This document shows, piece after piece, positions 30,401 through 33,400 of a stretch of 64,000 bases of DNA. The position numbers were made by a program. The number at the start of each line of letters is the position of its first letter. The stretch's first letter is position 1. Origin of the DNA: an uncultured Nitrospiraceae bacterium (GTDB lineage Bacteria; Nitrospirota; Thermodesulfovibrionia; Thermodesulfovibrionales; Dissulfurispiraceae); the NCBI GenBank assembly GCA_963705105.1, contig CAVPIW010000005.1, forward strand, positions 1 to 64,000, in the 5' to 3' direction.

Positions 30401-33400
30401 TGGCGAGCAGGAAAAGGAGGCCCACACCGACATCGGCGATGTAGAAACTTTCGGCGAAGGGGATGACGGCCAGGGAACTCATGGTGGCGAAAAGGAGAAT
30501 GATCGGCGCAACCGCAAAGGCGGGCTTGTCCGCCTGGCTCGGCATGATATCCTCTTTGAAGAAGAGTTTCAGGCCGTCGGCGATGGGTTGGAGTAAACCG
30601 TGAGGCCCCACCCGCATCGGCCCGAGCCGCACCTGCATGTGGCCGATGATCTTTCTTTCGAAGTAGGTGGCGTACGCCACGTGCAGCATCGCCACGCTGA
30701 TGACGATGACGATCTTGATGAGTATCGTGATGATCGTGACAAGAAAATCCATCTGTCCCGTTGGTAAAAACGACTCAATATTCAACCTGACACCTCCTCT
30801 GTCACACTGCTCTCTGTCAGTTCTTCAGCGAATTTCCCTACCTGTCGACCTCACCGAGGACGATATCTATGGTGCCGACGACAGCAATAAGGTCCGCGAT
30901 GAGCAATCCCTCCGACAGCCTCGGGATGATCGAAGAATGGACGAAGGAGGGAGCCCTCACCCGCATCCGGTAAGGATGTCCCGTCCCGTCGCTGATGAAG
31001 TAGAAACCAAGCTCGCCTTTCGGCGCCTCTATGCCGGAATAGAACTCCCCGGCGGGACACCCGATCGGCCCTTTTGTTATAAGGACGAACTGGTGGATGA
31101 GGGACTCCATATTGGCAAGGACCAGGTCCTTCGACGGCAGCACGTATTTCGGCGCATCGGGAGCGATGATCGCACCCCGCGGCAGCTTCTCGATGCACTG
31201 ACGGATGATCTTGTTCGACTGCCGCAACTCCTCCATCCTGCACCTGTACCGGTCGTAGGTGTCGCCCGCCTTGCCGAGGGGGACGTCAAACTCCACCTTG
31301 TCGTACGCGTCGTAGGGGATATGCTTCCGGAGGTCGAAATTGACACCCGAGCCCCGGAGGGTCGGTCCCGTCAACCCCCAGTTCACCGCCTCTTCACCGC
31401 TGATAACACCGATGCCCTTTGTCCGCTGGAGCCAGATCCTGTTCTGGTCGATAAGGGTTTCATATTCCAGGATCCTCCCCGGGAATTCCTCTGTGAACTG
31501 GTAGAGGCTGTCTATGAATTCCTGGCTGACATCGTTCCGGACACCTCCGACCCGCAGGTATGACGTCGTCAGGCGCGCGCCGCAGACCTTTTCAAACAGA
31601 TCCAGGATCCACTCGCGCTCCCTGAAGGCATAGAGGAAAACGGTCATGGCGCCGATGTCGAGGGCATGGGTGCCGAGCCACAGGAGATGACTCGATATCC
31701 TGGCCATCTCGGCCATCATCGTCCGGATATACTGTCCCCGTTCCGGCACGCTGACGCCGAAGAGCCGCTCCACGGCGACGCAGTATCCCTGATTGTTCGC
31801 CATAGCGGACATATAGTCCATACGGTCCGTGAGCGGCATCGCGTTCAGATAGGTGAGGTTCTCGCCGAGCTTCTCAAGACCCCTGTGAAGATACCCGATG
31901 TGGGGTACGCACTTGACGATCGTCTCACCGTCGAGATCCACCACGAGACGGAGCACGCCGTGCGTCGCAGGGTGCTGCGGACCGATGTTGAGTGTCAGTT
32001 CTTTCGTTGCTGAGGATTTCGCGCCCATTTATCTAACCTCGAACTGTTTGTTCTTTTCTGCGACTTCGAGTACTTCCTTCCAGCCCTTCCATTCCATGGC
32101 CCCAAGGTCGCTCTTGAGGGGATAATCCTTCCTGAGCGGATGCCCTTCCCAGTCATCGGGGAGAAGGATACGCCTGTGGTCGGGATGTCCCTTGAAGGTG
32201 ATGCCGAACATGTCAAAGCATTCCCGCTCGTGCCAGTTCGCCCCGGCATAGACGGGCACGACGCTGTCGATGGAACAGTCGTCTTCCGGCACCTCGGCCC
32301 GGACCCTCAGAAAGTGCCGGTGTTCGATCGAATACAACTGGTACGCGACCTCGAAACGGGGCTCCTTCTTGCCGAGGTAGTCGACTCCGCAGAGGTCGCG
32401 CAGGAGATCGAAAGAAAGGCTCGGCGTATCGTGGAGATACCGCACGATGTCCCTGATCCTCTTCTTGCCGACGATGACGGCGATCTGGCCGTTGTATTCC
32501 GCTATTTCCTTCACCTCGGAGGAAAATTGTTTCTGCAGTTGCTCAGCGATTTTTTTCGGATCCATACCTATCTCCACATGCTCCATTTGAAGTGTTCTTT
32601 TCTGATCTTTTCCTGGAGCTTCATCATCCCTTCAAGAAATGCCTCGGGTCTGGGAGGGCATCCCGGGATGAAAACATCCACGGGCATTATCAGGTCGACT
32701 CCCTGCACGGTGCTGTATGTGTCGAAGATGCCCCCGCTGCATGCACAGCTCCCCATGGCGACGACCCACCTCGGCTCCGGTATCTGGTCGTAGACCCTCC
32801 GGACGATGGGGGCCATTTTTTTCGTGAGAGTCCCTGCCAGGACGATCGCGTCGGACTGTCTCGGCGACGCCCTGTAGATGATGCCGAACCTGTCAAGATC
32901 ATAGTGTGACGATCCCGTCGTCATCATTTCAATGGCGCATCAAGCGAGGCCGAAGGTCAGCGGCCATAACGACGACAGCCTCCCCCAGTTGACGAGCTTG
33001 TCCACCGCCATGACGAAGACATTGGCGCCGGGGATGACCTTGACTCCCTCCTCGACTTCAACGAGAGCGGTTGTTCCGTCTATGATCATCTGCTTTCACC
33101 TCCTTTTAGAGCTAATCCCATGTAAATGCTTCCTTTCCCCAGGCATACACATAGCCGATGACGAGTATGAAAATGAAGACCAGCATTTCGACGAGCGCAT
33201 AGAGCCCGATCTTGTCGTAGACGACGGCCCAGGGATAGAGGAAAACGGCTTCAACATCGAATATGACAAAGAGCATGGCTATGATATAGAACTTGATGCT
33301 GAAACGATAGCGCGGTTCCCCGACAGGCTCGTTGCCTGATTCGTAGGGAAGGTTCTTTTCCTTGTAAGGTCTCCTGAGCCTGAAAAGTCTGCCGATCAGG

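Follow-up and report, generated by a model that had tools for sequence, protein, structure and literature searches.

The nuoB gene and its surroundings

The window, a stretch of 64,000 nucleotides from the genome of an uncultured Nitrospiraceae bacterium, carries a complex I operon on its minus strand. By Pfam, the genes follow each other in the order nuoA-B-C-D-H-I-J-K-L-M-N. This bears out the genome-wide survey's note, which had described an 11-subunit operon without nuoEFG. NuoF-like genes are found in the genome, but away from the nuo operon. An open reading frame of 176 codons after nuoN (22953..23483) was rejected as spurious, since it has no Pfam match, its translation is Arg-rich and it overlaps the terminator. 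The coordinates of all features are collected in Table 1.

Table 1. Features of the nuo operon in the window
Feature	Position	Strand	Basis and remarks
nuoA	33112..33564	-	PF00507; start uncertain, Pfam match from residue 53 of the 150-aa ORF
nuoB, read through the UGA	32568..33089	-	173 codons and TAG stop; frame, PF01058, TIGR01957/NF005012
In-frame UGA, codon 50, proposed selenocysteine	32940..32942	-	aligns with first Cys of the tandem CC motif
Cys51, second cysteine of the tandem motif	32937..32939	-	alignment to solved NDUFS7 chains
SECIS-like hairpin UGACGA-CGGGA-UCGUCA	32907..32923	-	6 bp, 5-nt loop; folds and conservation
Cys115 (GSCAC), third N2 ligand position	32745..32747	-	by alignment
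Cys144 (PGCPP), fourth N2 ligand position	32658..32660	-	by alignment
nuoC	32029..32586	-	PF00329; overlaps the end of nuoB
nuoD, complex-I-type 49-kDa subunit	30838..32028	-	PF00346
nuoH, I, J, K, L, M, N	23497..30785	-	PF00146, Fer4 families, PF00499, PF00420, PF00361 (three)
Terminator-like hairpin after nuoN	23432..23468	-	16 pairs, T run; strong; closes the operon

Translation of the nuoB frame gives 173 residues with one internal TGA, in the context FGLA-U-CAIEMM. Under translation table 11 the gene falls into two open frames, 32940..33089 (49 aa) and 32568..32927 (119 aa). The protein read through the TGA scored 100.9 bits against PF01058 (cut-off 27; 5.7e-29), 235.4 bits against TIGR01957 (NCBIfam; cut-off 142.7) and 244.6 bits against NF005012 (cut-off 116). 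Its best solved relatives were NDUFS7/PSST chains (E 1e-63). The genome, which is 99% complete, encodes exactly one NuoB; the five other proteins that match PF01058 are small subunits of hydrogenases and lack the CC motif. Two earlier claims, that the only nuoB is split by one in-frame TGA and that this TGA replaces the first cysteine of the tandem pair, were thus confirmed by the frame, the alignment and the single NuoB of the genome. A Group 4 [NiFe]-hydrogenase small subunit (Mbh/Ech/FHL) was also considered. It was rejected because the U-C pair has no spacer, as opposed to a CxxC motif, and because NuoD is far closer to complex I: NuoD matched NDUFS2 at 9e-137 and Thermus Nqo4 at 3e-121, and Mbh alpha at only 7e-46 and FHL subunit 5 at 2e-34.

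The Sec machinery of the source genome is complete. It comprises SelA, the SelB wing domain, SelD (with a TGA of its own) and a tRNA-Sec whose anticodon is TCA. A single TGA also occurs in each of four further genes of this genome that belong to known selenoprotein families. It is followed there by a hairpin at a similar distance, and the loops of these hairpins read GUC, GGACU, GGUCU and GGU. General recoding of TGA is not the explanation. TGA is the commonest stop, closing 854 of the 1510 open frames of at least 400 codons, and both nuoK and nuoM terminate in it.

DNA of other origin covers the same site. Two other studies provide contigs, and an RNA library one more, that span the TGA and the hairpin; these sequences are unchanged from 32860 to 32966, with 13-30 differences elsewhere. 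The contigs of the two other studies are 96.7% identical across 901 bases and keep the TGA. The RNA-library contig is not proof of transcription, of its level or of its strand. RNA run X16 yielded three short pieces only (34-44 nt), and these fit the stretch no more than partly.

TGA and cysteine forms among the relatives

The family sample comprised 68 genomes with 70 NuoB matches at 66% identity or more. One TGA, always at the same codon, was found in 22 of these orthologs; the remaining 48 have no TGA and carry TGY at this position, including three that a first motif pattern had missed. Earlier counts had given 17 genes with and 15 without TGA among 32. Both forms recur in the larger sample, where the counts become 22 and 48 of 70, and the shared codon noted earlier for 6 of 6 TGA-bearing genes was confirmed for all 22. 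In two cases (G004 and G059) a close relative with a cysteine codon lies in the same genome as a TGA form. A PF01058 paralog of G019, 41% identical and flagged with one TGA, was set aside: the TGA is an ordinary terminal stop and the protein has a CxxC motif, so that it is a different gene.

Both halves of nuoB are under purifying selection. Among the 22 TGA forms the median dN/dS was 0.09 for the part before the TGA and 0.04 for the part after it. In the family tree, 6 state changes suffice and 4 are forced by well-supported branches; the members are related, so the counts of TGA and cysteine forms are not counts of independent events. Within the family, Sec looks like an old state that would have given way to Cys on several occasions, each by a change of one base. 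After such a replacement the hairpin would decay.

The search was widened to 201 genomes of Nitrospirota, in which 150 matches were listed and 167 more lie beyond these. Among the 150 matches listed, the TGA forms outside the family all came from the same order (G097, G198, G202, G227 and G245), as had been noted before. A scan with a degenerate pattern found at least 119 further stretches. Eighty of these were fetched, and 78 of the 80 are NuoB with the UGA at the same codon. The record labels of these loci name Nitrospirota, Thermodesulfobacteriota/Deltaproteobacteria, Chloroflexota, Bacillota, Verrucomicrobiota and others. Judged from these sequences, UGA-bearing NuoB is not confined to Nitrospirota and recurs in many anaerobic bacteria.

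The hairpin downstream of the UGA

A hairpin about 20 nt past the UGA had been reported, and a 6-bp stem was found there with 16 nt between UGA and stem. The stem thus begins 17 nt after the UGA, and the loop follows at 22 nt. Two more pairs beyond a 1-nt bulge lengthen the hairpin to 32905..32926. The G-U variant mentioned in the survey's note is real and was seen in L039 and L042.

Synonymous-site constraint over the hairpin is specific to the TGA forms. In these genes the third-position entropy of codons +5 to +12 was 0.27 bits, versus 1.24 elsewhere, and the 8-codon stretch of lowest entropy in the entire gene begins at +5. In the cysteine forms the corresponding values were 1.36 and 1.43 bits. 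At the site, 22 of 22 TGA forms have a stem of 6 or more contiguous pairs, versus 9 of 48 cysteine forms and about 9% of displaced control positions. All 100 TGA forms, taken within and beyond the family, have an apical loop of 3-9 nt at 20-27 nt from the UGA with a G within its first two positions; the loop G's are partly imposed by a conserved Gly codon. Variation of the stem was expressed as the number of different arms, and the hairpins of these 100 forms use 18 different 5' arms at the same offset. Both the register (sums of paired positions of 54-58) and the bulges vary between hairpin classes, and therefore no single structure fits the ungapped alignment. At least 4 contiguous upper-stem pairs were found in 45 of 62 distinct stretches.

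By energy the hairpin is modest. The published bSECIS model, as laid out in Fig. 2 of PMC13188914, has a loop of 3-9 nt and an upper stem of 4-16 bp at 16-37 nt from the UGA; the same source gives a G among the first two nucleotides of the loop and an energy of -7.5 kcal/mol or lower. With its loop (CGGGA), its stem of 6 bp and its spacing of 22 nt the hairpin in the window lies within these ranges. Its energy of -6.5 kcal/mol, calculated in a 36-nt stretch, misses the -7.5 kcal/mol of the model, although the published folding stretch may differ. Among the 62 distinct stretches, 42 reached -7.5 kcal/mol; the calculated energy varies with the stretch folded. The hairpins of the TGA forms fit three of the four bSECIS criteria given in PMC13188914.

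Other energy tests gave a similar picture. A 76-nt fold had z = -0.42 and a different pairing as its best structure, and 22% of the other 27-nt segments of this nuoB were at least as stable as the hairpin site. Ranking the 27-nt site against other segments of the same gene separated TGA from cysteine forms poorly (median fraction at least as stable, 0.088 versus 0.169). The mean energy at the site was -6.95 kcal/mol for TGA forms versus -5.8 kcal/mol for cysteine forms, in which some hairpin is frequent. The latter often fold here because the codons of the T/A-T/A-G-S/A-S/A residues pair mutually. Since the energy tests separate poorly, the case for a SECIS element rests on conservation and not on energy.

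The arrangement resembles SelB-decoded bacterial selenoprotein genes of the E. coli fdhF type, as described in PMC13188914: the UGA aligns with a Cys in homologs, and it is followed by a 6-bp upper stem with a G-containing 5-nt loop. The gene differs from these in the energy shortfall given above. SelD, FdhA and MvhD are decoded in the source genome in the same way as is proposed here for nuoB.

Selenocysteine as a candidate ligand of cluster N2

The chain of electron carriers in complex I ends in cluster N2, which adjoins the quinone site. In alignments, U50, C51, C115 and C144 fall on the N2 ligand cysteines of solved NDUFS7 chains (tandem CC, GxC, PGCP), and by the alignment offsets U50 corresponds to residue 45 of Thermus Nqo6 and residue 85 of Yarrowia NUKM. 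According to PMC8042128, four cysteines of NDUFS7 bind N2, among them the tandem pair C85/C86, and this unusual tandem ligation has long been discussed with regard to the high, pH-dependent potential of N2. Alignment and PMC8042128 agree with the ligand role that the survey's note had assigned to the tandem cysteines after Thermus/E. coli structures. By homology U50 probably ligates N2, with residue numbers taken from the alignment offsets and from PMC8042128.

We propose that SelB with Sec-tRNA(Sec) would bind the hairpin 17 nt past the UGA and insert Sec at residue 50, as the sequence features suggest. Sec50 would stand in for the first cysteine of the strained tandem pair, which with two other NuoB cysteines holds the terminal [4Fe-4S] cluster N2 beside the quinone site. 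If solved complex I structures are a guide, N2 would then have one selenolate and three thiolate ligands. The enzyme would be an 11-subunit quinone reductase of the complex I type without the NuoEFG input module. The insertion of Sec, its ligation of N2 and a change in cluster properties are all putative; such a change might concern the potential, the protonation or lability of this mobile ligand, or the resistance to oxidative damage. Taken as a whole, a full-length Sec-NuoB with Sec50 on N2 in an 11-subunit quinone reductase is, in our judgement, a highly probable explanation of these sequences.

An improbable alternative is read-through of the UGA in which selenium plays no part. The codon would be decoded by a near-cognate tRNA for Trp or Cys, or by a Cys-charged tRNA-Sec, with an ordinary all-sulfur or a defective N2 as the result. 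The energetic weakness of the hairpin would suit such a mechanism, but one base change gives Cys and has happened repeatedly in relatives, and yet 100 loci retain the TGA together with a hairpin under constraint. SelA, moreover, was found in 19 of 19 TGA-bearing family genomes, and the TGA form is absent from all 8 genomes in which SelA had no match.

It is very unlikely that nuoB is broken or split, with the TGA as a true stop, pieces of 49 and 119 residues and a complex that is dead or lacks N2. Table 11 yields exactly these two frames, and an ATG ATG pair lies five codons past the TGA; however, the internal ATG has no Shine-Dalgarno-like GGAGG before it, whereas one precedes the nuoB start. 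Either piece would lose both tandem ligand residues. Against a broken gene also stand the low dN/dS of both halves, the otherwise intact operon with the only NuoB of a nearly complete genome, and the recurrence of the break at a single codon across several phyla, in 100 loci. An error in sequencing or assembly has a negligible probability and is already refuted by the TGA in the contigs of two other studies and in 99 other loci. That the nuoB TGA is a selenocysteine codon rather than the mark of a broken or split gene is well supported by these comparisons.

Read as Sec-NuoB, the protein shares with canonical Cys-type NuoB/Nqo6/NDUFS7 its family by HMM, the nuoA and nuoC neighbours, three of the four N2 cysteines (C51, C115, C144) and a NuoD of the complex I type. 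It differs in that the first tandem Cys is a UGA followed by a SECIS-like hairpin, and in an operon without nuoEFG. Gene callers split or truncate nuoB of this kind, and the proper annotation would be one selenoprotein. We lean slightly towards a wider view, that the complex I of many anaerobes is a selenoenzyme which uses a selenolate for the most mobile N2 ligand, selected for potential, redox-linked protonation or robustness. If so, this would be a natural selenium-for-sulfur experiment at the coupling site of complex I, which links electron transfer to quinone with proton pumping. It would also be a widespread selenoprotein family missing from the lists, would bring a core respiratory enzyme among the selenoproteins, and would make the energy metabolism of these sediment and groundwater anaerobes dependent on the supply of selenium. 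The natural Sec-N2 form would also serve as a probe of the ligand role, with close Cys relatives available for comparison.

In keeping with the survey's remark that a Sec-containing NuoB is undescribed, no such protein was found in searches of openly available articles, among them PMC5736913, PMC5109826, PMC12013277, PMC9723677 and PMC9312934, or in selenoprotein catalogues. Table 1 of PMC13188914, with 119 selenoprotein families and subfamilies, does not contain the NuoB family. That table does list Sec at or near metal or Fe-S sites in FdhA, [NiFeSe] hydrogenase, HdrA, MvhD/VhuD, '2Fe-2S-binding' and 'Fe-S cluster domain' proteins. They resemble the proposed Sec-NuoB in that Sec takes the place of a metal-binding Cys in a redox enzyme of anaerobes, with Sec/Cys pairs among close relatives; unlike it, none of those in the table is a respiratory complex I subunit or a case of tandem-cysteine N2 ligation. 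The 'NADH:ubiquinone oxidoreductase subunit E' named in PMC13188914 is PF02508/NqrE of Na+-NQR and not a part of complex I.

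The nuoB frame and its operon

Translated with table 11, nuoB falls into two ORFs of 49 and 119 residues. In the window, the context of the separating TGA reads directly as FGLA-U-CAIEMM, where U is the proposed selenocysteine (Sec) at codon 50, U50. The read-through product was identified as NuoB by Pfam PF01058 (100.9 bits) and by NCBIfam TIGR01957 and NF005012, both above their cut-offs. Gene-family assignment gave the order nuoA-B-C-D-H-I-J-K-L-M-N with nuoEFG absent from the operon; NuoF-like genes of this genome (G000) were found only outside it, elsewhere in the genome. 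NuoD belongs to the complex I type (NDUFS2 9e-137 and Thermus Nqo4 3e-121, versus 7e-46 for Mbh alpha). Six PF01058 matches were obtained in G000. Apart from NuoB these are five hydrogenase small subunits; all five lack the CC motif, and four have twin-arginine leaders. Since, in addition, the NuoB protein as query returned one match in G000, this nuoB is its only NuoB gene. Thus, a single NuoB gene, an 11-gene nuo operon without nuoEFG and a TGA at the first cysteine of the tandem CC motif, all claimed in the genome-wide survey's note, were found again here.

A 176-codon ORF (22953..23483) has no family match, overlaps the terminator-like hairpin past nuoN and looks spurious. Upstream of nuoA (33774-34892, minus strand) lies a gene for a repeat-rich protein of 372 residues; its match to DUF6242 is borderline at 29.3 bits (cut-off 29).

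Features of the nuo operon and further genes of G000 with an in-frame TGA
Feature	Position	Strand	Description
nuoB	33089..32568	minus	single 173-codon frame; sole interruption TGA at 32942..32940
Terminator-like hairpin	23468..23432	minus	16 pairs and T run, strong; directly past nuoN, closes the nuo operon
SelD	G000:C11:79300-80208 (outside window)		one in-frame TGA of its own
FdhA	G000:C12:54131-57343 (outside window)		one in-frame TGA
Second FdhA-like gene	G000:C5:161509-162264 (outside window)		one in-frame TGA
MvhD	G000:C5:133504-133872 (outside window)		one in-frame TGA

UGA decoding and conservation of the codon

G000 (completeness 99.4%) has the genes for SelA and SelD, a 657-codon frame that contains a SelB wing domain, and a tRNA-Sec whose anticodon is TCA. 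It holds at least five selenoprotein genes. In the four from known families (see table), a hairpin comes after each TGA. Its loop starts with GU or GG (GUC, GGACU, GGUCU, GGU), and its stem starts at a distance of 14 to 19 nt, counted from the U of UGA. In position, the hairpin of nuoB (stem 19-24/30-35, loop CGGGA) lies closest to that of MvhD. Among 1510 open frames of G000 with 400 codons or more, 854 stop at TGA, which also ends nuoK and nuoM; thus, there is no genome-wide reassignment of TGA.

An assembly error was ruled out by independent DNA. Contigs from two other studies extend over all 901 bases of the stretch and show 30 differences. A contig of 395 nt, taken from a metatranscriptomic library, spans 32732..33126 and has 13 differences. 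The interval from 32860 to 32966, which contains the TGA and the hairpin, is free of differences in all of these contigs. The nuoB of a close relative is present in this RNA library, which is short of proof of transcription.

We searched 68 genomes of the family (Dissulfurispiraceae) and fetched all 70 NuoB matches of at least 66% identity. Exactly one TGA was found in 22 (TGA forms), none in the remaining 48 (Cys forms). In 22/22 TGA forms it stands at the CC motif's first codon, and 48/48 Cys forms read CC, so that the earlier statement of one constant codon applies to this sample. SelA matches were obtained in 60/68 genomes, including all 19 with a TGA form; the eight genomes lacking a SelA match, one of them 98% complete in 9 contigs, contained no TGA form. 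Because most family genomes have SelA, this co-occurrence is consistent with Sec decoding rather than decisive. Two nuoB copies, both with TGA, occur in three genomes (G001, G029, G067); G004 and G059 carry one TGA and one Cys copy each and would permit a natural comparison. Median pairwise dN/dS among TGA forms was 0.09 for the 40 codons upstream of the TGA and 0.04 for codons +14 to +122. A NuoB-like paralog of 41% identity (L222, G019:C1:608639-608980) was rejected as a TGA form: its reported TGA is an ordinary stop and its motif CxxC. It probably belongs, as small subunit, to a membrane-bound hydrogenase-like complex.

The hairpin downstream of the UGA

The stretch AUGAUGACGACGGGAUCGUCACA is nearly letter-identical in all but one of the 22 TGA forms. 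Variants are an A to G change giving a G-U pair with pairing preserved (L039, L042) or a loop change (L040), in agreement with the survey's claim of a retained hairpin with a G-U change. The 22nd form (L089, G004:C90) has another hairpin at the equal place, GGCUGC-AGGU-GCAGCC, and its two nearest Cys relatives each show one mismatch in this stem. The L089 stem is identical to that of L155, a locus labelled Bacillota, at equal offset; the cause is either transfer or a convergence that arose through Ala codons.

Third-position entropy at codons +5 to +12 was 0.27 bits in the TGA group versus 1.24 in the remainder of the gene, and 1.36 versus 1.43 in the Cys group. The lowest-entropy 8-codon window of the TGA group across the whole gene begins at +5. 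A contiguous stem of at least six pairs centred at the hairpin site was present in 22/22 TGA forms and in 9/48 Cys forms; for displaced positions within these genes the share was about 9%. The hairpin is intact in two Cys forms (L043 in G052, L052 in G042) and has a one-base variant in two more (L060 in G039, L065 in G038). These four, with TGC at the codon and the hairpin kept, look like recent Sec-to-Cys changes. We built an unrooted nuoB tree without the columns of this site. It requires at least six Sec/Cys state changes, and well-supported branches force four of these. On it the TGA forms occupy short, deep branches, which together with the common hairpin suggests that Sec is the old state in the family and was replaced by Cys several times, a direction we infer from an unrooted tree.

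The folding energy is unremarkable (-6.5 kcal/mol in a 36-nt stretch). A 76-nt fold gave z = -0.42 with another pairing as best structure, and 22% of the other 27-nt windows of this nuoB have an equally good or better fold. At the site, the mean for Cys forms is -5.8 kcal/mol, because the codons for T/A-T/A-G-S/A-S/A pair mutually; a Gly codon accounts for part of the loop G's. The bSECIS model (PMC13188914, Fig. 2 legend) has a loop of 3-9 nt, an upper stem of 4-16 bp, G in the first two loop positions, a spacing of 16-37 nt and at most -7.5 kcal/mol. Loop, stem, G and spacing of the window's hairpin all agree with it (4/4), but in the fold used its energy falls short, which may be one reason why SECIS-based scans have not listed nuoB.

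Breadth and the predicted position at cluster N2

In the 201-genome Nitrospirota sample, TGA forms outside the family were seen, among the 150 matches listed, only in five genomes of the same order. We scanned one genome per species (about 185,000 species) with degenerate DNA for F-G-x-[A/S]-UGA-C-[A/G]-x-E-M and obtained at least 119 stretches. We fetched 80 loci; 78 of them are NuoB frames in which 49-124 codons before the TGA and 68-163 after it are open, whereas L110 and L125 were chance matches. Submitter labels, which are those of the metagenome bins and may be loose, were Nitrospirota (41), 'Deltaproteobacteria' (15), Thermodesulfobacteriota (11), Chloroflexota (2), Pseudomonadota (2), Bacillota, Verrucomicrobiota and Ca. 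Tharpellota (1 each), with 4 unlabelled. The 100 TGA forms gave 62 distinct 36-nt stretches. All 62 have an apical loop of 3-9 nt whose first two positions include G, 20-27 nt from the UGA (G[G/U] fits 61/62). Their upper stems comprise 18 different 5' arms; four or more contiguous pairs lie below the loop in 45 of the stretches, and 42 fold at -7.5 kcal/mol or lower. Varied stems at one site across lineages are what a functional RNA element would predict. Taken together, the Sec machinery, the one conserved codon, the hairpin constraint and this breadth strongly support, at the sequence level, the survey's reading of the in-frame UGA of nuoB as a selenocysteine codon, which is very probable.

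The survey's claim of novelty held in the full-text literature, where no description of a Sec-containing NuoB was found (subscription journals, supplements and GenBank feature tables lay outside this scope); candidate papers mention selenoproteins and NuoB-type enzymes separately. No PF01058 or NuoB entry is among the 119 prokaryotic selenoprotein families and subfamilies of a May 2026 review table (PMC13188914), whose 'NADH:ubiquinone oxidoreductase subunit E' is PF02508/NqrE. NuoB is likewise absent from the new families in the accessible part of the deep-Sep paper. Sec-NuoB would be a variant form of an enzyme known very well, and a family of selenoproteins without a description in the literature searched.

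Among solved structures, the best matches are mitochondrial NDUFS7/PSST chains (E 1e-63), and in these alignments U50 falls on the first C of FGLACCAVEMM. From the matched ranges, U50 corresponds to Thermus Nqo6 residue 45 (query 16-167, chain 11-163) and Yarrowia NUKM residue 85 (query 26-167, chain 61-203). According to PMC8042128, the ligands of N2 are four cysteines of NDUFS7, among them the tandem pair C85/C86; ubiquinone receives its electrons directly from N2, and C85 is the more mobile of the pair, near the tyrosine of NDUFS2 that binds the quinone. The remaining three N2 ligand positions are cysteines in the window's NuoB (C51, C115, C144). With these retained and U50 aligned to the tandem Cys, a selenolate ligand on N2 would follow straightforwardly from homology. 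One tandem cysteine reportedly detaches on reduction in Thermus structures. In synthetic clusters, selenolate ligands shift potentials only modestly.
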